Shown: piece by piece, positions 5,798-62,334 of the stretch
Layout of the letters: each line of letters begins with the position of its first letter
Numbering within the stretch: the stretch's first letter is position 1
Assembly (NCBI GenBank): GCA_963827655.1
Contig: CAWHCF010000006.1
Coordinates: forward strand, 32,001 to 96,000
Direction of reading: 5' to 3'
DNA length: 64,000 nucleotides
Source of the DNA: an uncultured Acidobacteriota bacterium
Lineage (GTDB): Bacteria > Acidobacteriota > UBA6911
The notes under the pieces: model-generated
Databases searched by the model: none
Seen by the model: only the letters and a program-made list of their open reading frames with translations
Told to the model about the DNA's origin: nothing
Translations under genes and position numbers: made by a program

Positions 5798-6514
5798 ATG
5801 CAAGGCAAGAATTTCTTGAATGCAATCTGGGCCATGCCGCTGCTGTTCACCACGGCGATCTTCGCCGACGGTGGTGCCGGTGAGGCAATTCAGCGCGGCA
5901 ATGAGGCTTTTGGCCGCGGCCACTACCAGCTGGCAATTTTCGAATACCAGGCGGCGCTGGCGGTGGATTCCCGCCGGCACTATGTCATGGCGCGCTACAA
6001 CATCGGCGTCTGTTACTTCAAACTGGGCCGTTTGAGCGACGCCGTGCGCGAGTATCGAGCCGCGATCGCGGCCGGCGACGGGCAGTACTCGAAGGCGCTT
6101 TATGCGCTCGGCGTCGCACTGGAAGATCTGGGGCAATGGGACGAGGCCAGGTCCGCCTTGACCCGAGCGGTTGAACTCTCCGGAGGACGGCATGTAGAAG
6201 CGCTGTTTGAGCTGGGCCTCATACGCCACCGCGAAGGCGATTTTGAAGCTGCCTCCAACCATTTTCGGCGGGCGGTCGCGCAAGTGACCGGAATCTTCCC
6301 GGCCGGGCTCAACAACCTGGGCGTAACCCTGGCGGCACTCGGTCGTCTGTCCGAGGCCGAGCAAGCCTTCGAAAAGGCGCTCGCTCAATCCAGGGGCCGT
6401 CTAGTAGAGGCGCGTCGGAATCTCAGACTCTGCCGCGCCGCGCGCTCGTCTCCCTTTCGAGAACGGCTGGCAAGTCTGACGATAGCCGGAAGAAACGACG
6501 CGGCGGGTAATTAA
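5798..6514 (+). CDS. Secreted tetratricopeptide-repeat protein
   Basis: Signal peptide; repeated YNIGVCY / YALGVAL / NNLGVTL TPR helices. Confidence 0.8.
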   Translation: MQGKNFLNAIWAMPLLFTTAIFADGGAGEAIQRGNEAFGRGHYQLAIFEYQAALAVDSRRHYVMARYNIGVCYFKLGRLSDAVREYRAAIAAGDGQYSKALYALGVALEDLGQWDEARSALTRAVELSGGRHVEALFELGLIRHREGDFEAASNHFRRAVAQVTGIFPAGLNNLGVTLAALGRLSEAEQAFEKALAQSRGRLVEARRNLRLCRAARSSPFRERLASLTIAGRNDAAGN

Positions 6515-6733
6515 GGGTTCGCGCAGAAATAAGTTCGCATTCTGCTGCAGGCCCCCAGGCCCGCTGGCGAGGCGCGAGCGACGATGCGTACCCGGCGCGG
6601 TACGTGAGAGAGCAAAAAAGCGGGCCTGCGGCCGCGAAGGCGCGCGATTCCGAGCGTGCGCAGCTAAGGGAAACCGGTTCATGATTGACCACCAGTCTCG
6701 CGCCAGAATGTGAAGTTATTTCTGCGCGAGCCC
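6515..6733. mobile_element. MITE-like element family A, copy 2 (219 bp)
   Basis: Same TIRs as copy 1; TAA on both sides, the left TAA being the TPR gene stop codon. Confidence 0.85.
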
Positions 6734-6820
6734 TAAGATATAATCCTGGCTTTGCGTCTCAGCGGTCGGTTCTTGTTCGATCAGGATCAACCGAGATGAC
6801 GCAAGGACACCGCCAGGATC

Positions 6821-7381
6821 ATGAAAAAAGATCGCTCGGTCTCAGCCGCCCTCGCCCCGATCGTGCTGCCCGATGTGGATGGAAACGAGATTCTCCTGGG
6901 CTCGCTATGGGCTGACCATCCGGCAGTGGTGGTCTTTCTACGGCACTATGGATGAATCTTCTGCTGGGAACACGTCGCGCAGTTGCGCGACTGCGAAGAG
7001 GGTTTTCGCTCTGCCGGCGCCGGTCTCGTCGCGGTGGGGCTGGGCGATGCCCGTCACGCCCGCGCTTTTCGCGATGGTACCGGCATTCGCTTCACCCTGC
7101 TGGTTGATGAGCACAGGAAGGCCTATCACGCCGCCGAACTGAGGGTCGCGTCCTTGCTTCACATCTTCCGTGGCGACAATGCCAGGGCCCGAGCCCGGGC
7201 CCGGCAGGCCGGACACCGGCAGCGTCGCCACGGGCGGCATCCCTTTCAACTTGGCGGAAGCTTCGTCTTCGCCCCCGGGCACGTCGATCTCTTCTCCCAT
7301 ATTTCTGAGACCTTCGGTGACAACGCCTCGCCCGATACTTTGCTCGCGGTGGTGCGGGAATCTTCGCGTCTTCGTGGTTAG
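6821..7381 (+). CDS. Selenoprotein, AhpC/TSA-like (peroxiredoxin-like 2) thioredoxin-fold protein with UxxC motif
   Basis: ATG 6821 reads MKKDRSV...VVVFLRHYG, then in-frame TGA at 6953-6955, then IFCWEHVAQLR continuing into track ORF 6983-7381 (QLGGSFVFAPG motif); SECIS-like hairpin follows the TGA. Confidence 0.85.
6956..7000 (+). promoter_or_regulatory. Putative bacterial SECIS element
   Basis: Stem GTCGCGC (6974-6980), loop AGTT, stem GCGCGAC (6985-6991); loop starts 25 nt after the UGA and has G at position 2; possible lower stem CTTC..GC / GC GAAG. Confidence 0.7.
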
Positions 7382-7523
7382 TGCGGCGGCACAATAAGCC
7401 AACCACCAAGGCGAACGCAGCCGTGAGGCGGCAAAAATGATCAAGAATGCCTGGCCGCGCTGAGCTATCAGCCGTCAGCGGTCAGCTATCAGCTTTGGCC
7501 AACGGCGTTGCTAGTTTCTGAAT

Positions 7524-7631
7524 GAGAGACGTAAGCATTCGTTTTACTTCGATTACTTGGGCTTCTAATCAACGTGCTGCAACTCGCGGCATAAAAATGT
7601 TGCTCGAAAAACAAGATTTCACAGTCGTGTA
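7524..7631. repeat. 108-bp dispersed repeat, copy 1 (copy 2 at 62335-62442)
   Basis: GAGAGACGTAAGCATTCGTTTTACTTCGAT...GGGCTTCTAATCAACGT...CAACTCGCGGCATAAAAA...GATTTCAC.GTCGTGTA is shared, colinear and of the same length. Confidence 0.85.
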
Positions 7632-7653
7632 ATACGAAGATTCGAAGAAAACG

Positions 7654-8082
7654 CTAAGGCAGCCGCAAACGATCTTCTGCCCGCCTGGGTGCCGGACTTG
7701 ATTCGGCTTCGCGAGCTAGACGCGGAGAAGCCAGGGATTCGACCGCTTTTGCCTGAGCAAGACTCCTGGTCAATGAATCCGGCGCGCGGGCGTATGAAAC
7801 CTTTTTGTCGATGGCTCGACCTGCGAAATAGCCGCCAATGGCGCCGGCGATGGCTCCTATCGCTACGTTCCTGGTCATTTTCTGGGTCGCGTTTATGGCA
7901 TCGTCATCGGATAAACTGTAACCAAGGAAAAATCCACCGACCGCTCCGGCGCTTACCCCGATGATTCGGCCAAGATGGCGTTCGTCGGATCTTGAACCCG
8001 CCGGGCTCTGGGGAAAGACTGGCGAGGAGCTGAATAGCACAGTCGAGAGTAAGGATAAAACCAGGCCTGATCTGAGTCTCAT
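7654..8082 (-). CDS. Hypothetical exported/membrane glycine-zipper protein
   Basis: Signal peptide; GVSAGAVGGFFLG and GAIAGAIGGYFAG helices; SD AGGAG before ATG 8082. Confidence 0.65.
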   Translation of the reverse strand: MRLRSGLVLSLLSTVLFSSSPVFPQSPAGSRSDERHLGRIIGVSAGAVGGFFLGYSLSDDDAINATQKMTRNVAIGAIAGAIGGYFAGRAIDKKVSYARAPDSLTRSLAQAKAVESLASPRLAREAESSPAPRRAEDRLRLP

Positions 8083-9017: not shown

Positions 9018-10247
9018 CTAGACGTTGGTTTTTGTCAAAATCTGTTTGATCCGATCGGCAATAATAGTTTCCTCACCCGAGAGGAGATTGTACGGAAAGA
9101 TCCCAAGTCCCTTCCACGGCGGACGAAACTTTGTCATGTCACTTGCCTCAATCGGGGGTTCTCCGTCTCGCAGGAGCTTGACCATTTCTGCCAGAGTCAC
9201 ACCCAGTTTTCCCTCGTCCCACTGCACGGACAGCCGGGGAGAGTGGCTATAGTCTGAATTGGTGATGTATTCGGTGAACACCGTGGGAACGCCCTTGAGC
9301 CGCGCGGCGATGCGGTCGAGCATGGCGTGCCACTCCCGGCGCTCGGCAGCATGATCTTTCTTCAGATTCCACTCGACTGCAGCCAGCAGTCCGACGATCT
9401 CTTCCTTGCCCACCTTGGCGATACGCGCGAAACGATTGTGGGGAGAACTGTTGGCATAGGCCGCCTCGACCAGGTCCTTCCGGCCGAGCAACAAACCGCT
9501 GCACTGCGGTCCGCGCAGGTTTTTCCCCCCGCTGAAGGCTACCAGATCAGCTCCCATTTTGACGAACTTGCTGAGATTTTCCGCCGGTGGAATCTCGGCT
9601 GCAGCATCGAGGATCACGGGAATTTTAGCGCGGCGCGCGATCTCGATCAGTTCTTCGAGTTCCACCTTGTGGCCCATTGAGTTATGGCTAAGGACCATTG
9701 CCAGCGCCGCCGTTTTTTCGCCAATCGCGCGACGAATCTCCTCGGCCGTTTCGGCTTCGATCAACTTGACTCCGACCATTCGAAAAGCATGGTCGTACGA
9801 ATTCCGGTGAACCTTCTGAATGATGATTTCGCTTTTCATTCCGGTCAGGTCCGGCAGCCGGTCAATCCTGGCCGGGTCTTTTCCTGCAGTGACCGCGCAT
9901 GTCGCCAGGCAAAGGCTCGCCGAGGCCCCGGCCGTAACGAACGCCGCCTCGGCTCCGGTCAATTCGGCGAGTCGCTGCCCCACTTTCTCCTGAAGTTCGT
10001 GAATGCGGACGAATCGACGCGAAGCTTCTTCCATCGCGTGCCGGACTTCGGGGGGCATCACGCTGCCGCTCAAGGTGGTCAGGGTACCGACGGCGTTTAT
10101 GAAAGGCCGCACGCCCAGCCGGGAGTAGACTCCGGACGGGGCGTGCGAGGCTGTCTGAGCGCCGGCAAACACGCGGCTTCCCGCCGCCGGCAAGGCCCAT
10201 CCTGCGTGAAAGAACCTTCGGCGAGAGAGCTTATCGATCAATTTCAT
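9018..10247 (-). CDS. SelA-like/DgaE-family PLP-dependent enzyme with twin-arginine signal
   Basis: SRRRFF Tat motif; RPFINAVGTLT, ILDAAAE, FSGGKNLRGPQCSGLL (PLP lysine), KVGKEEIVG. Confidence 0.85.
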   Translation of the reverse strand: MKLIDKLSRRRFFHAGWALPAAGSRVFAGAQTASHAPSGVYSRLGVRPFINAVGTLTTLSGSVMPPEVRHAMEEASRRFVRIHELQEKVGQRLAELTGAEAAFVTAGASASLCLATCAVTAGKDPARIDRLPDLTGMKSEIIIQKVHRNSYDHAFRMVGVKLIEAETAEEIRRAIGEKTAALAMVLSHNSMGHKVELEELIEIARRAKIPVILDAAAEIPPAENLSKFVKMGADLVAFSGGKNLRGPQCSGLLLGRKDLVEAAYANSSPHNRFARIAKVGKEEIVGLLAAVEWNLKKDHAAERREWHAMLDRIAARLKGVPTVFTEYITNSDYSHSPRLSVQWDEGKLGVTLAEMVKLLRDGEPPIEASDMTKFRPPWKGLGIFPYNLLSGEETIIADRIKQILTKTNV

Positions 10248-19786: not shown

Positions 19787-20653
19787 CTAGCCGCGGGCAC
19801 GGGCTGCGGCTGCTTCGATCGAGCGGCGCGTATAGACAGCCGCCAGCGCCTTGCGGTACTCGCCCGAGGCGTGTATATCCGATAATGCTTCGATTCCTTG
19901 AGTTGCGGCCTCAGAAGCGGAGCGAAGCGCCTCCGGATCGAGAGATTTTCCTCGAAGCCTGGATTCCACCGCGCCGGCGCGAAATGGCATAGACGCCACG
20001 CCGGTGACCCCGATGCGAATATCCGAGCACTTCCCGTCCTCCAGCGCCAGACTGGTGGCGATGCCGACGAGAGCGAAACCGGAGGCCGGTTGCGCGACTT
20101 TGAAATAGGCAGAGCCTGCTCGAGCCCCGGCTTTCTTTACCCGAATCTCGGACAGTATCTCGCCGGCATTCACGGCCGATTGAAGCATTCCGACAAAGAA
20201 GCTGCCTGCCGGAACTTCGCGCGGCCCGCCGGCTCCCACCAGTTTCATTCGGGCATCGAGCGCCAGGATCGCCGCCGGAATATCGGACGCGGGGTCTGCG
20301 TGCACGAGGCTCCCTCCAATGGTGCCCCGGTTCCGGACCTGAACGTCTCCCACATGCGCGGAACACATCGCCAGAAGCGGCGCCTTCTCGATGATGAGAG
20401 CCGAAGTCTCCAGCATGTAGTACGTGGTCGCGCCGCCAACGACGATGTCGTCTCCTTCCTCGCGGATGAATCGGAGCTCGGGAATTCTTCCGATGTCGAC
20501 GAGTACCGAAGGCGCGGCAAGGCGAAGCTTCATTAGCGGAATCAGACTATGGCCTCCGGCGAGGACCTTGGCCTCCGCTCCATGCTGGCCCAGAAGCTTC
20601 ACGGCCTCGGCCACCGACTTGGCAACCACATAGTCAAAGCTCGACGGAATCAT
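19787..20653 (-). CDS. coxM: Xanthine dehydrogenase/CODH-family FAD subunit
   Basis: LAGGHSLIPLMKLR, RNRGTIGGS, ADPASD. Confidence 0.88.
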   Translation of the reverse strand: MIPSSFDYVVAKSVAEAVKLLGQHGAEAKVLAGGHSLIPLMKLRLAAPSVLVDIGRIPELRFIREEGDDIVVGGATTYYMLETSALIIEKAPLLAMCSAHVGDVQVRNRGTIGGSLVHADPASDIPAAILALDARMKLVGAGGPREVPAGSFFVGMLQSAVNAGEILSEIRVKKAGARAGSAYFKVAQPASGFALVGIATSLALEDGKCSDIRIGVTGVASMPFRAGAVESRLRGKSLDPEALRSASEAATQGIEALSDIHASGEYRKALAAVYTRRSIEAAAARARG

Positions 20654-23010
20654 TGAGTGGCCCTCCCTTGCTTGATGATGCGCCAAATCTTTTCGGGTCT
20701 AAGGGGCATGTCGATATGCTTGACGCCGAAGGGCGCCAGCGCATCGACAACGGCATTGACAATCGCGGGCGTGGAGCCGATCGTGCCGGCTTCTCCCACC
20801 CCCTTGACTCCCATCGGATTCACATTCGTGGGAGTCTCGGTCCGATCCGTCTCGAATCGAGGCAGGAAGGTTGCTTTAGGAATGGCGTAGTCCATGAGCG
20901 TTCCGGTGATCAGCTGCCCGTTTTCGTCATAGACCACTTCTTCCCAGAGCGCCTGTCCCATTCCTTGAGCTATGCCGCCGTGTACCTGGCCATCCACGAG
21001 CAGCGGGTTGATCGCCTTGCCGCAGTCATCGATGGCAACATAGCGCTGCCACTTGATCTCTCCCGTCTCGCCGTCGATCTCCACGACGGCGACGTGGGTG
21101 CCGAAGGGAAATGTGAAGTTGCTCGGTTCGAAGAACTGCGTGGACTCGAGCCCCGGCGTTTCTCCCTTGGGAAGCGCCTTGGCGGTGTAGGCGGCCAGCG
21201 CGATGTCCTGCAGACTCGTGGAAAGCTCCCGCTTCCCCTTCACGTAGTAAGTCGGTCCGCTGATGACGATCTGATCGGGCTCGGTCTTGAGCATCATGGC
21301 TGCGAACTGCCTGGCCTTCTCCTTGATCTTCTCGATGCACATGTAGACCGCCGTGCCTCCCACGGCTGTGCCCCGGCTTCCGAAAGTGCCGATTCCATAC
21401 TGCACGATAGCGGTGTCGCCGTGGCTGACGACGACGTCTTCGGGGTTGACGCCCAGCATGTCGCAGGCGATCTGAGTAAAGCTGGTCTCCTGTCCCTGCC
21501 CGTGAGGCGAGACGCCCGTGAGAATCGTGACTTTACCTGTCGGAGCAACCCGGACCGTGGCCGACTCCCAACCCCCGGCGGGCATCGCCGACGACGGGCC
21601 CAGGGCGCAGATCTCGACGTAGCTTGATAATCCGATGCCAAGGTACCGCCCATCCTTCCGCAGCCTCGACTGCTCTTCACGCAGCTTGTCGTAGCCTGCT
21701 TTTTCAAGAGCGATCTTCAGCGCGTTCTGGTAATTCCCGCTGTCGTAAACCAGTCCGGTCGACGTGGAATAAGGAAAATCTTCAGGTTCCACCAGGTTCT
21801 TCGTCCGGATCTCGACCGGATCCTTGTTAAGGTCTTGCGCGATGCGGTCCATCATGCGTTCGAGCAGGTAAGTGGCTTCCGGCCTCCCCGCTCCGCGATA
21901 GGCGTCGGTCGCTACTTTGTTCGTGAACACGCCGATCAGATCCATCTGAATCGCTGGAATCTTATAAGGGCCCGATAGCATCAGGCCGGTGAGCGTGGGA
22001 ATTGCCGGGGTCAAGAGCTGATGGTACGCGCCAAGGTCCGCCAGGACGCGGCAACGAAGCCCGAGGATAGTTCCGTCATTCTTGACCGCTACCTCAACTT
22101 CGTTGATTTGAGCCCGGCCCTGGATCGTGCCCGCGATATTCTCCCGCCGCGTCTCGGACCACTTGACCGGTGTGTTCAGCATCCTGGTCAGATAAGCCAG
22201 AAGGCCTTCTTCCCGGTAGACATTCAGCTTGCAGCCAAAACCGCCGCCGACTTCCGGCGCGATCACGCGAACCCGGTTCTCCGGCGCCCCCACCATCACC
22301 GCGACCTGAGTGCGCAGCAGGTGCGGAATCTGCGTTGACGACCAGAGATTGATGGTTTCTTCGCCCAGATTGTACTGTGCCACGACGGCACGGCACTCGA
22401 TCGAAATAGGAGCGAGGCGTTGATTTACCAGCCGCTGGGTCACGATCTTGTCCGCGCTCGCGAACGCCTTCTCGATATCGCCTCCCCCTTTTTGAACAAA
22501 AGTAAAAGCGATATTGTTCTCAAACTCCGGATGGACCTTGGGAGAATCCGGCTTTGCCGCCGCCTCTGAATCGACTACGGCCGGAAGCGGGTCGTATTCG
22601 ATCTGAACCAGGTCAGCGGCATCCCTGGCGGTATAGCGATGCGTGGCAATGATCGCGACGACCGGTTCGCCTACATACCGGACGGCATCCACCGCCAGGA
22701 CGGGATGGAAGGGAGCCTTCAGCCCCGGCATCCCGGCAGCGCAAGGGACCGAACCAATGAGGTGGGAGATATCCTTGCCGGTCAGAACCAGGATGACTCC
22801 CGGCGCGCGCTTGGCCGCCTCGGTATCGATGGAAATGATATTGGCATTCGCATGGATGCTGCGCACGAAGCCCACATAGAGCATGTGAGGGAACTTGAGA
22901 TCATCCACATACGTGGATGATCCGGTGATGAGGCGCGGATCCTCCTTGCGCTTCATCGAGGAACCCATTGCGCCAGGAAGCGTTTCTTCCATCGGTTTAG
23001 CGGTAGCCAT
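20650..23010 (-). CDS. coxL: Xanthine dehydrogenase-family molybdopterin subunit, form II CoxL-like
   Basis: VGGGFG, active-site AYRGAGR (form II, not AYxCSFR), GQGQET, GQVHGG, KGVGEAG. Confidence 0.88.
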   Translation of the reverse strand: MATAKPMEETLPGAMGSSMKRKEDPRLITGSSTYVDDLKFPHMLYVGFVRSIHANANIISIDTEAAKRAPGVILVLTGKDISHLIGSVPCAAGMPGLKAPFHPVLAVDAVRYVGEPVVAIIATHRYTARDAADLVQIEYDPLPAVVDSEAAAKPDSPKVHPEFENNIAFTFVQKGGGDIEKAFASADKIVTQRLVNQRLAPISIECRAVVAQYNLGEETINLWSSTQIPHLLRTQVAVMVGAPENRVRVIAPEVGGGFGCKLNVYREEGLLAYLTRMLNTPVKWSETRRENIAGTIQGRAQINEVEVAVKNDGTILGLRCRVLADLGAYHQLLTPAIPTLTGLMLSGPYKIPAIQMDLIGVFTNKVATDAYRGAGRPEATYLLERMMDRIAQDLNKDPVEIRTKNLVEPEDFPYSTSTGLVYDSGNYQNALKIALEKAGYDKLREEQSRLRKDGRYLGIGLSSYVEICALGPSSAMPAGGWESATVRVAPTGKVTILTGVSPHGQGQETSFTQIACDMLGVNPEDVVVSHGDTAIVQYGIGTFGSRGTAVGGTAVYMCIEKIKEKARQFAAMMLKTEPDQIVISGPTYYVKGKRELSTSLQDIALAAYTAKALPKGETPGLESTQFFEPSNFTFPFGTHVAVVEIDGETGEIKWQRYVAIDDCGKAINPLLVDGQVHGGIAQGMGQALWEEVVYDENGQLITGTLMDYAIPKATFLPRFETDRTETPTNVNPMGVKGVGEAGTIGSTPAIVNAVVDALAPFGVKHIDMPLRPEKIWRIIKQGRATQ

Positions 23011-23018
23011 GGTTCCTC

Positions 23019-23513
23019 CTAACCGGATGCCGAAGCAACCTTCGATTCCCGAAGCTTGCGCGCGGCGTGTTCGACGGCGTTAACAATATGTTGATACCCG
23101 GTGCAGCGGCAGAGATTGCCATCCAGGCCATGCCGGATCTGCTCTTCCGACGGATTGGCATTTCTCTTCAGCAGCTGGCAGGCGGCCAGGATCATTCCAG
23201 GCGTGCAAAAGCCGCATTGCAAGCCGTGCTCTTCCCAGAATCCTTCTTGCATGGTATGCAGCGTGCCATCCGGCGCTAACCCCTCGATGGTGGTCACCTC
23301 GGATCCCGCAGCTTGAACCGCCAGCAGCGTGCACGATTTCACCGCCTCTCCATCCAGCAGTACCGTGCACGCCCCGCAGATGCTGGTTTCGCAACCGATA
23401 TGCGTCCCTGTGAGACCCAGTATTTCGCGCAGATAGTAGACCAGGAGCAGCCTTGGTTCGACATTGTTTTCGTAATCTCTTCCGTTGACTTTGACGCGAA
23501 TCGCATATCCCAC
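23019..23513 (-). CDS. coxS: (2Fe-2S) subunit
   Basis: [26 protein letters not shown]. Confidence 0.9.
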
Positions 23514-38653: not shown

Positions 38654-40687
38654 ATGATCGAGATCAAGCGCAGCGTCTGCCCGCTGGACTGTCCTGATAC
38701 CTGTTCGATTCTGGTCACGGTCGAAGACGGCAAACTGGTCAAGCTGCAGGGCGACCCGGATCATCCTTTTACGCGCGGCTATCTCTGCGGGAAGGTCTCG
38801 CGCTATGACGAGCGGGTTTACTCGCCGGAGCGACTGCTGCATCCGATGAAACGGACAGGGCCGAAGGGAACCCAGCAGTTCCGGAGAATTACCTGGGATG
38901 AAGCCCTGGACACGATCGCCGCCCGTTTTCAGAAGATCGTGGAAGAACACGGCGGTGAGGCTATCCTTCCTTACTCATACGGAGGAACCCTGGGTGTAGT
39001 CCAGCGCAACGCGGGCCACCGGTTCTTTCACCGTCTGGGCGCCAGCCGGCTTGTGCGCACCATCTGCAGTCCCGCAGCAACCTTCGGTTTTAATTACACG
39101 GTGGGAGCGTCTCTCGGGCCCGATCCCGAGTCGGTTACGGAGTCGGACTACATCGTGATCTGGGGGCAGAATACCGCGGTGGTAAATCTCCACCTGATGC
39201 CTTTCATCAAGGAGGCGCGCCACTCCGGAGCGAAGCTCGTGGTCATCGATCCTTACCGGAATGACACCGCCCGCCTTGCCGACGTTCACCTGCAACCGCT
39301 CCCCGGCACGGATGCCGCCCTGGCCCTGGGCATCATGCACGTTCTAATTGCCGAAGACCGGGTTAATCGCGAGTACATTGCATCACACACCCTCGGGTAC
39401 CAGCAGCTAAGAGAGCGGGTCCTGCGGGAATATCCCCCCGAAAAAGCCAGCGCCATAACCCGCGTGCCGGTCGAATCAATCCGGCAACTGGCGCGCGAAT
39501 ACGGGTCCGCTCGGGCGCCCTTCATCAGGATCGGAGACGGGCTTTCCCGTCACACCAACGGCGGTATCGCAGTCCGCAGCATTGCCTGCCTGCCGGGACT
39601 GGTGGGCTCATTTGCCCGGAAAGGAGGAGGCGCTTTTCAGAGCACCGGAGGATCCTTCAAGATCGATGAAGACTACGTGCGCATGCCTGACCTCTCTCCC
39701 GACGGCGTGCGCAAGATCAATATGGTCAAGCTTGGCGACGTCCTGACTTCAGGTCTCAAACCCCCCGTTCTCGGCCTCTACGTCTACCATTGCAATCCGG
39801 CCGCCGTGGCGCCGGACCAGTCCCGCGTACTTCAAGGGCTTCGGCGCGAGGACTTGTTCACCGTCGTGCACGAACAGGTCATGACCGATACCGTAGACTA
39901 TGCCGACATCGCACTTCCGGCGACTACGTTTCTCGAACATGGCGATCTCTACAAATCATACGGCCACCTCTATCTGCAGAAAGCGGATCCGGCGATCGCG
40001 CCCCTCGGAGAGTCGAAGTCGAATCTGGAAGTGTTCCAGCTATTGGCCGCCCGCATGGGGTTCATGGAGGAAATATTCCAGGAGCCGCTGGAGAGCCAGA
40101 TAGAAGGTAGTTTGAACGTAGCGAGCAAGGAACTCGAAGGCGCCGGTTACCCGCAGATCAGAGACGGGAAGCCGCATCGTTTGAACGTGCCCGCGCAGCC
40201 CTACGAAAGCGGCTTTCCCACGCCTTCCGGAAAACTCGAATTCTATTCGGAGACGCTTGAAAAACTAGGGATCGATCCGCTCCCCTTCTACCGACCCTGC
40301 TATCACTCGAACGGGGAGGGGGAGGATGGAGCGCTCCATCTGCTGGCGCCCCCATCCAAGCATTTCCTGAATTCGACTTTCGGCGCCGTGCCGAGCCTGG
40401 TCGAGCGGGCTCGACGCCCTTCACTCCTCATTCACCCGGCCGAGGCCGCGGCGCGTAGTCTAGAGGACGGTCAGCTGGTGCGGGTTCACAATGAGAACGG
40501 AGAATGCAGGCTGTACGCAGCACTCACGGAGGATGCGCCTCGAGGCGTCGTCGTGGCGGCCTCGGTCTGGTGGCAAAAACATTCTCCCGACGGAAAAGGA
40601 ATCAACCACCTTACTTCACAAAAGACGACCGACCTCGGAGACGGCAGCACCTTTCACTGCAATCTGGTCCATGTCTCGCCTGCCTGA
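38654..40687 (+). CDS. Molybdopterin (bis-MGD) oxidoreductase
   Basis: CPLDCPDTC 4Fe-4S motif, RLLHPMKR, RTICS, ADIALPAT, C-terminal molydop-binding domain. Confidence 0.9.
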   Translation: MIEIKRSVCPLDCPDTCSILVTVEDGKLVKLQGDPDHPFTRGYLCGKVSRYDERVYSPERLLHPMKRTGPKGTQQFRRITWDEALDTIAARFQKIVEEHGGEAILPYSYGGTLGVVQRNAGHRFFHRLGASRLVRTICSPAATFGFNYTVGASLGPDPESVTESDYIVIWGQNTAVVNLHLMPFIKEARHSGAKLVVIDPYRNDTARLADVHLQPLPGTDAALALGIMHVLIAEDRVNREYIASHTLGYQQLRERVLREYPPEKASAITRVPVESIRQLAREYGSARAPFIRIGDGLSRHTNGGIAVRSIACLPGLVGSFARKGGGAFQSTGGSFKIDEDYVRMPDLSPDGVRKINMVKLGDVLTSGLKPPVLGLYVYHCNPAAVAPDQSRVLQGLRREDLFTVVHEQVMTDTVDYADIALPATTFLEHGDLYKSYGHLYLQKADPAIAPLGESKSNLEVFQLLAARMGFMEEIFQEPLESQIEGSLNVASKELEGAGYPQIRDGKPHRLNVPAQPYESGFPTPSGKLEFYSETLEKLGIDPLPFYRPCYHSNGEGEDGALHLLAPPSKHFLNSTFGAVPSLVERARRPSLLIHPAEAAARSLEDGQLVRVHNENGECRLYAALTEDAPRGVVVAASVWWQKHSPDGKGINHLTSQKTTDLGDGSTFHCNLVHVSPA

Positions 40688-61612: not shown

Positions 61613-62095
61613 TCACCGGTTTTTCCGCTCGAGGGCGAGCAGGATTTCTTTGATATGGAGTCCCCCGCCGTATCCCGTCAAATGACCGCTGCTTCCGACG
61701 ACGCGATGGCAAGGGATGACAATCGGAAGCGGGTTCCGGCCATTCGCCGCTCCTACGGCGCGAATTGCCGAGGGCCTTCCGATGGCACGGGCCAGATCCC
61801 GGTAAGAAGTGGTCGCGCCGTACGGTATCGAGAGCAGCCCGCGCCACACCGCTTGCTGAAAAGGAGTACCCGCCGGGGCCAGCGGGAGGTCGAAGGTCTT
61901 GCGCGTACCTTCAAAATACTGTGAGATTTGCCGGATTGCGTCCCTGAACGGGACGCCATCATCTTCCCAGTGCGGATCAAGCTTGATTGTTTCTGTTTCC
62001 GAACAAAACTCGATCCGCTGCAGTCCGGCACAATCGCCGGCAAGGAACAATCTTCCTACCGGTGTTTCTGTGAAGCTGTAGAACAGTCTGGTCAT
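61613..62095 (-). CDS. ogt: Methylated-DNA--protein-cysteine methyltransferase
   Basis: GTPFQ, IPYG, RAVGAANGRNP, PCHRV. Confidence 0.93.
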   Translation of the reverse strand: MTRLFYSFTETPVGRLFLAGDCAGLQRIEFCSETETIKLDPHWEDDGVPFRDAIRQISQYFEGTRKTFDLPLAPAGTPFQQAVWRGLLSIPYGATTSYRDLARAIGRPSAIRAVGAANGRNPLPIVIPCHRVVGSSGHLTGYGGGLHIKEILLALERKNR

Positions 62096-62334
62096 CAGGC
62101 ACCGGTCACAACGAAGACTCAGCGCGGCCATCCGGCCGCGCTCTGGATTTGGCCAGTCAGGCCAAGAGCGCTCGCGCGGGGATTCCACGACTTGTCCGAG
62201 ATCCGAGTCGGCACTCCGATGTGTCGCACCTTCGGCGCTCGTTTCTAAACCTGAACTCTTCCCGGTTCCGCTGCCGGCCTCGGCTGCGCGCACCCGAGGC
62301 CGTCAGCTATCAGCTGTAAGCTTGCCGTTGCTGC

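Follow-up and report, generated by a model that had tools for sequence, protein, structure and literature searches.

We describe a probable selenoprotein gene in a 64-kb stretch of DNA (hereafter the window) from contig CAWHCF010000006.1 of an uncultured Acidobacteriota bacterium. With a probability of roughly 0.88, the forward-strand gene at 6821-7381 encodes a 186-residue thioredoxin-fold oxidoreductase with selenocysteine (Sec, U) at position 45 and Cys at position 48, the Sec being inserted by way of SelB and a selenocysteine insertion sequence (SECIS) in the mRNA. We favour this reading because the in-frame TGA at codon 45 is conserved among relatives, homologues carry Cys at the same column, the codons of a hairpin shortly downstream are frozen, and TGA is otherwise a normal stop. 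The features concerned are the following.

6821..7381, forward strand: proposed complete selenoprotein coding sequence, from the frame, matches to PF13911, PF00578 and NF040769, and codon conservation in 81 sequences.
6953..6955, forward strand: in-frame TGA, probably read as selenocysteine U45, the putative attacking residue of the UxxC motif, from TGA conservation and the Cys alignment.
6962..6964, forward strand: TGC codon of Cys48, which probably acts as resolving residue in UxxC, with Cys in 81 of 81 sequences and TGC in 80.
6974..6991, forward strand: SECIS-type mRNA hairpin with a 7-bp stem and an AGUU loop at 6981-6984, from the centroid fold, RNAalifold and frozen codons 53-56.
6976-6980 / 6985-6989, forward strand: conserved hairpin core of five G-C pairs, from the RNAalifold consensus.
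6983..7381, forward strand: 132-aa open reading frame (ORF) with a TTG start, reported by a standard gene caller instead of the full gene, from the ORF list.

Counting Sec45, the region 6821-7381 is a single frame of 186 codons that terminates at TAG (7379-7381), and its sole internal stop is the TGA at 6953-6955, in the context FLRHYG*IFCWEH. Upstream, the nearest in-frame stop is a TGA at 6797-6799, and the first start codon thereafter is the ATG at 6821. A plain ORF list breaks this frame at the TGA into two pieces, 6821..6955 (44 aa, ATG start) and 6983..7381 (132 aa, TTG start), which is why the gene is absent from the ORF track. Thus the original prediction, made from the letters of the window, was right both about a 186-codon frame that the track had missed and about a TGA at codon 45 within FLRHYG-U-IFC.

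The read-through protein, in which Sec was entered as Cys for the programs, matches Pfam AhpC-TSA_2 (PF13911) with 53 bits (E 5.2e-14, cut-off 27) and more weakly AhpC-TSA (PF00578; 36.5 bits, E 5.5e-09). The sole NCBIfam match is NF040769, 'SelL-related redox protein', in which residues 16-177 cover model positions 8-172/173. In a sequence search of the PDB the top match was human prostamide/PGF synthase PRXL2B (9us9, E = 1.1e-08), and in this alignment U45 falls on Cys44, the first Cys of the CVVC motif (RHYGUIFC versus RRFGCVVC), just where the original prediction had placed the TGA, at the first-Cys column of PRXL2-type CxxC proteins. An AlphaFold2 model built from a 49-row alignment (predicted local distance difference test 92.1, predicted template modelling score 0.89) has a strand at 35-39, then U45, then a helix at 46-57, so that U45 takes the classical active-site position of the thioredoxin fold at the N-terminus of that helix. 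Foldseek against the PDB returned the PRXL2B structures 9usa/9us9 first (TMt 0.89/0.83), followed by Bcp, PrxQ and ResA, all with probability 1.00, and the identity in the PRXL2B alignment was merely 22-24%. The peroxiredoxin signature PxxxT/SxxC(U), as given in section 7 of PMC13188914, is missing in VVVFLRHYGU, where His42 stands at -3 and Val38 at -7 from Sec; hence the protein is of the CxxC-type Prx-like2 kind, and a typical peroxiredoxin was rejected despite the PF00578 score. The protein is a Prx-like2/PRXL2/SelL-related redox protein with a thioredoxin fold.

Relatives were collected in two ways. A protein search of 5.8 billion sequences gave 1720 matches, and counts of protein forms given below cover the best 120 clusters. 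A genome scan with one genome per GTDB species gave 384 relatives, the best 80 loci of which were analysed and, with the window, make up the 81-sequence set. Because these loci were picked out by patterns in the C-terminal peptide and put in order by tblastn with a Cys-45 query, their choice was not biased to TGA. All 80 loci, each from a different species-level genome, nevertheless have TGA at the codon-45 column, as does the window, and the UxxC motif is present in 81/81 sequences. The loci come nearly all from Acidobacteriota metagenome-assembled genomes (MAGs), with a few binned in other phyla. Farther out, among 150 representatives of 50%-identity clusters, the motif is CxxC in 98, CxxS in 3 and CxxA in 3, while the column is missing in 35 and holds another residue in 11; Cys therefore stands at the Sec column in 104 of the 115 distant representatives that cover it. 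The pairing of Sec with Cys that defines selenoprotein candidates is thus very clear in these alignments, and the expectation that homologues would show Cys or TGA here was borne out. Two of the loci have read-through frames far longer than the usual ~180 codons (L076:2992-3918, with a C-terminal extension, and L031:383-1996, with a long open upstream frame), which may be fusions or mere open frames.

A first alternative takes the TGA for a true stop, the gene being either a decaying pseudogene or one from which only the 132-aa ORF at 6983-7381 is expressed. In its favour, the proteins in 87 of the best 120 database clusters are short at the N-terminus: 125-153 aa in length, they begin just past the Sec column (many as M/V-FCREH...) or slightly later, and several of them, from MAGs of Terriglobales, Candidatus Angelobacter, Acidiferrum and Bryobacteraceae, carry NCBI labels such as 'AhpC/TSA family protein' and 'peroxiredoxin-like family protein'. 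However, on both sides of the TGA the amino acids are conserved across the 81 sequences and synonymous sites vary freely, so the 44 upstream codons are maintained as protein and in frame. These upstream residues also supply strands 15-18, 23-25 and 35-39 of the modelled fold, a shortened product would lack the first active-site residue, and an identical stop mutation in 80 of 80 species is not expected. A true stop is therefore very improbable, and for practical purposes it is excluded. The short forms instead bear out the view that annotation pipelines split or shorten the gene. The generic names they receive have a simple origin: the NF040769 model covers this clade only marginally. The short NCBI forms score only 79.7-88.5 bits on it, and 120 bits or more are reached by 14/20 read-through and 12/24 Cys relatives, which places the clade at the edge of the model.

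The remaining best clusters comprise 24 full-length Cys forms, 6 full-length Trp forms, 1 full-length Gly form and 2 without a motif match. The Trp forms (P0011, P0013, P0018, P0022, P0030 and P0031) and the Gly form (P0029) could be taken as signs of SelB-independent read-through of the TGA, in which a near-cognate or suppressor tRNA would insert an amino acid such as Trp and the hairpin would merely be stimulatory. Nevertheless, TGG occurs in 0/81 loci and Trp in none of the 150 distant representatives, and Trp at the catalytic CxxC position would abolish the redox chemistry. Moreover, all seven forms keep the hairpin-encoded peptide AQLR, which fits TGA genes to which gene callers applied code 4 or 25, and this is the most likely origin of the seven. 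Prodigal in metagenome mode contains code-4 models. We regard SelB-free read-through as highly improbable. The original prediction had held that homologues with Trp or another non-Cys residue at this position would speak against Sec; such database entries do exist, but for the reason just given they need to be read with care. In P0022, Ser replaces the resolving Cys, giving a UxxS-like form.

A related proposal is that TGA is simply a sense codon in this organism, as in translation tables 4 and 25, under which the frame would be open. Against it, TGA ends 18 of the 39 Pfam-supported ORFs of the window and 37 of the 80 homologous genes, and TGA is thus an ordinary stop in this organism. The window has a G+C content of 58.2%, and its acetolactate synthase is closest, among the named matches, to Acidobacteriota MAG proteins (81-82% identity); Acidobacteriota are not known to use codes that reassign TGA. 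We consider a sense TGA extremely improbable.

Sec insertion in bacteria calls for an RNA element close behind the UGA, and the proposed element is the hairpin formed by GTCGCGC (6974-6980), AGTT (6981-6984) and GCGCGAC (6985-6991). It has seven perfect pairs and an energy of -12.1 kcal/mol, is present in the centroid fold, and has its first loop base 25 nt from the TGA, which agrees with the 7-bp stem and AGTT loop of the original prediction in every particular. In the bacterial SECIS (bSECIS) model of a 2026 review (PMC13188914, Fig. 2 legend), an upper stem of 4-16 bp carries a loop of 3-9 nt whose first two positions include a G, often with G or U after it; the UGA-loop distance is 16-37 nt, and the minimum free energy is at most -7.5 kcal/mol. 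The window hairpin agrees with each of these features as that source gives them (4-nt loop, G at loop position 2, 7 bp, 25 nt, -12.1 kcal/mol). For the 81 sequences together, RNAalifold retains five G-C pairs below the same loop, with a consensus energy of -8.46 kcal/mol.

Stronger support is found in the codons of the hairpin. When the 81 genes are aligned by codon, codons 53-56 are nearly frozen (synonymous entropy 0-0.17 bits), compared with 0.46-2.26 bits at other conserved residues in 8-44 and 46-177; the one further exception is the Cys48 codon, which is likewise frozen (TGC 80/81, 0.10 bits). Codons 53-56, with their use elsewhere in the gene, are as follows.

Ala53: GCG in 81/81; elsewhere in the gene GCG 255/900.
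Gln54: CAG in 81/81; elsewhere in the gene CAG 119/162.
Leu55: TTG in 79/80; elsewhere in the gene TTG 165/1301.
Arg56: CGC in 77/79; elsewhere in the gene CGC 315/544.

The loop G that the bSECIS model demands is the third base of the Gln54 codon, and 14 of the 19 single-base departures in the 5-bp core still pair, as G-U. The peptide tells the same story: AQLR is kept in 78/81 TGA forms versus 14/24 Cys forms, a loss that would be expected if the RNA, and not the protein, fixed the peptide. Hence the predicted SECIS-like hairpin with an early loop G not only falls within the published bSECIS description, but also shows hardly any synonymous change in its core and at its loop G across the 81 sequences. 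In one relative, L043 (3118-3165), Arg56 is changed to Ser (AQLS), and a shifted 3' arm gives a stem of 6 bp under a loop of 6 nt, AGUUGA, which looks like structural compensation.

Several results weigh against the Sec reading, or against parts of it, and are gathered here. The window protein aligns with NF040769 end to end, but its 104.9 bits do not reach the cut-off of 120. Within 60 nt from the TGA, folding is not exceptional (z = -1.09; 27 of 200 shuffles fold equally well or better), and when all TGA read-through frames of the window with at least 20 codons on either side of the TGA and at least 90 in total were scanned, 13 of 171 had a hairpin that fits the bSECIS criteria, so the hairpin alone is not beyond chance. 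Covariation in the stem is unsupported (84.0% of cells pair versus 84.5% in shuffles), only 1 stem pair varies on both sides, and conservation does not extend to the two outer pairs of the 7-bp stem, which form in 15/77 and 58/77 sequences. The covariation signal is absent because the stem is too conserved, and the case for a SECIS therefore rests on synonymous-site conservation, for which the Fisher tests on codons 53-56 treat kin sequences as independent and thus give overstated p-values. Comparison of the whole window with Rfam at gathering thresholds found no match, and neither did a search of 6900-7060 with E values up to 10. Cys forms are found in none of the 80 genome loci, yet they make up 24 of the best 120 protein clusters; near-identity of these 24 with TGA loci would suggest a display artefact, and their identity to the closest such locus is 57-85%. 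Finally, ARAGORN found 0 tRNAs in the 64-kb window, hence no tRNA-Sec there, the flanks of the 80 loci hold only tRNA-Gly, Val, Phe and Thr and no tRNA-Sec, and selA, selB and selD were not found within the window, a lack of visible Sec machinery that counts for a true stop as well.

Of the 13 hairpin-bearing read-through frames, only the one described here matches a protein family; the other 12 have no Pfam match at E up to 0.01. Elsewhere in the window the core hairpin motif has only two 1-mismatch matches, which is within chance. Beyond chance are two things, namely that the protein matches its family across the TGA and that both TGA and hairpin are conserved in 80/80 related loci. From this conservation we infer that the organism decodes Sec and that SelB, tRNA-Sec, SelA and SelD are presumably encoded elsewhere in its genome. 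Selenoproteins have been reported from this phylum before, with 3 families and 4 proteins of Acidobacteria in Table 2 of PMC1794560 and a further report for Acidobacteriota in PMC13582414.

The features of the window do not by themselves discriminate Sec from Cys insertion, and the UGA and hairpin could be recoded to Cys through a SelB-dependent tRNA of the tRNA-ReC type, giving a CxxC protein. According to PMC13582414 (citing Vargas-Rodriguez et al. 2018), tRNA-ReC-like tRNAs decode UGA as Cys with a downstream SECIS in several bacterial phyla. However, the same source states that such genes coexist with canonical tRNA-Sec and places them in ~13-17% of genomes. Moreover, TGA in 81/81 is hard to explain if Cys were the residue inserted, since a one-base change to TGC or TGT would need no machinery at all. 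Recoding to Cys is thus quite improbable, and Sec remains our preferred assignment for codon 45.

With Sec at this codon, the gene would work as follows. During translation the UGA at 6953-6955 would be recoded as selenocysteine, the hairpin at 6974-6991 serving as a bacterial SECIS that recruits SelB with Sec-tRNA(Sec), to give the active-site motif Sec45-Ile-Phe-Cys48. The Sec45 selenolate, at the N-terminus of helix 46-57, would attack an oxidised substrate, which may be a peroxide or endoperoxide, as for PRXL2B, or a disulfide; Cys48 would then resolve the intermediate to a selenenylsulfide, and a thioredoxin-type reductant would recycle it. The cycle and the substrate are modelled on PRXL2B and on thioredoxin-fold enzymes with CxxC, and the protein is expected to be cytoplasmic. 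The suggestion of the original prediction that this is a Se-dependent redox enzyme is supported, at the level of sequence, by the fold, the Sec/Cys alignment and the conservation of TGA and hairpin.

Among the selenoproteins of bacteria, those with a thioredoxin fold and a UxxC motif are the commonest type. Table 1 of the 2026 review (PMC13188914) has 119 prokaryotic selenoprotein families or subfamilies, including several other thioredoxin-fold UxxC families. A cd02970 peroxiredoxin-like selenoprotein with UxxS, prokaryotic and predicted with high confidence, is catalogued in that review, and there is no cd02970 UxxC entry in its Table 1. As described there, this selenoprotein resembles the window protein in its Prx-like2/AhpC-TSA_2 class and in its single Sec at the first position of UxxX, but, compared by description, it has UxxS where the window clade has UxxC in 81/81; it is not named in the available part of PMC1976440. 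The review also describes bacterial Prx-like thiol:disulfide oxidoreductase selenoproteins (UxxC/UxxU), which share with the window protein a thioredoxin fold, a Sec redox motif and a SECIS within the coding sequence; they belong to PF00578, however, whereas the best Pfam match here is PF13911. Sec-peroxiredoxin, listed in the same Table 1 with PxxxTxxU, likewise has a thioredoxin fold and a SECIS within the coding sequence, but its motif is missing here.

Among eukaryotic proteins, SelU has the same Prx-like2 domain, according to PMC3473315. SelU/PRXL2A-C agree with the window protein in this domain, in having Sec or Cys as the leading residue of the xxC motif, and in comprising Sec and Cys forms within one family. 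PRXL2B is the best PDB match of the window protein by sequence and by structure alike, at the low identity given above. The SECIS of the eukaryotic genes lies in the 3' untranslated region, whereas that of the window gene would lie within the coding sequence. SelL of fish and invertebrates, a related redox protein according to the NCBIfam name, also has Sec in an xx-spaced motif, but it carries two Sec, spaced two residues apart (PMC3316567), where the window protein has one Sec and one Cys. No paper was found under the name 'SelL-related' or the accession 'NF040769', and selenoprotein combined with Acidobacteria or Acidobacteriota as search terms gave no literature description of the clade, which supplements may nevertheless list.

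The gene is real and very probably decodes Sec. It is a member of an already known kind, and it is widespread in Acidobacteriota and shortened in public annotation. It is possible, though we put it forward as a tentative and rather doubtful proposal, that the gene belongs to a bacterial counterpart of SelU/PRXL2, a Prx-like2 clade with UxxC that is unlisted in the 2026 inventory, occurs in many soil and peat Acidobacteriota and is consistently cut short in public annotation. Sec decoding would then be common and overlooked in soil bacteria of the Terriglobia type, and the invariant AQLR would be dictated by the SECIS RNA and not by the protein. The full gene should supersede the calls of 132-134 aa as 'AhpC/TSA family protein', both here and in numerous Acidobacteriota MAGs (80 or more species-level genomes), the annotated products being shortened forms without the catalytic residue. 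Judged from sequence, the gene points to a selenium-dependent redox defence in abundant soil bacteria. The compact and highly conserved SECIS, with its loop G at the synonymous base of Gln54, would also be a clean target for the study of SelB recognition beyond the classical models. No new category or principle is involved; the gene matters for annotation, for soil selenium biology and for its SECIS as a model.

Several further observations concern the surroundings of the gene. An antisense ORF of 168 aa (6938-7444, reverse strand) overlies it; this ORF has no Pfam match, has a counterpart in 57/81 loci, and merely mirrors the conserved coding strand without being a gene. A promoter and terminator consensus scan of 6500-7700 found nothing. 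No neighbour conserved across the loci is shared with the window, so no operon partner can be proposed; the commonest neighbour, a divergent short-chain dehydrogenase in 23/81 loci, does not occur in the window.

At 9021-10247 on the reverse strand, 1.6 kb from the selenoprotein gene, lies a 409-aa pyridoxal phosphate enzyme that matches Pfam SelA (PF03841) at 4e-14. As a SelA it was rejected (TIGR00474 60.9 bits versus a cut-off of 267.9); TIGR01437 gave 206 bits (cut-off 385), and by these profile matches the enzyme is probably of the DgaE/selA-related ammonia-lyase type, easily mistaken for a Sec synthase. Two other genes belong to families in which Sec is found. A 677-aa molybdopterin oxidoreductase at 38654-40684 on the forward strand is kin to the formate dehydrogenase alpha subunit and DMSO reductase, with all NCBIfam scores below cut-off; it has no in-frame TGA and thus represents the Cys type, or a non-Sec form, within a family where Sec is frequent. 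The gene at 61616-62293 on the reverse strand, of whose family Sec forms are listed in the 2026 review, has no in-frame TGA either. The reverse strand at 19790-23513 also holds a three-gene cluster of the xanthine/CO-dehydrogenase family, with a 2Fe-2S subunit, a molybdopterin-binding large subunit and an FAD-binding subunit.

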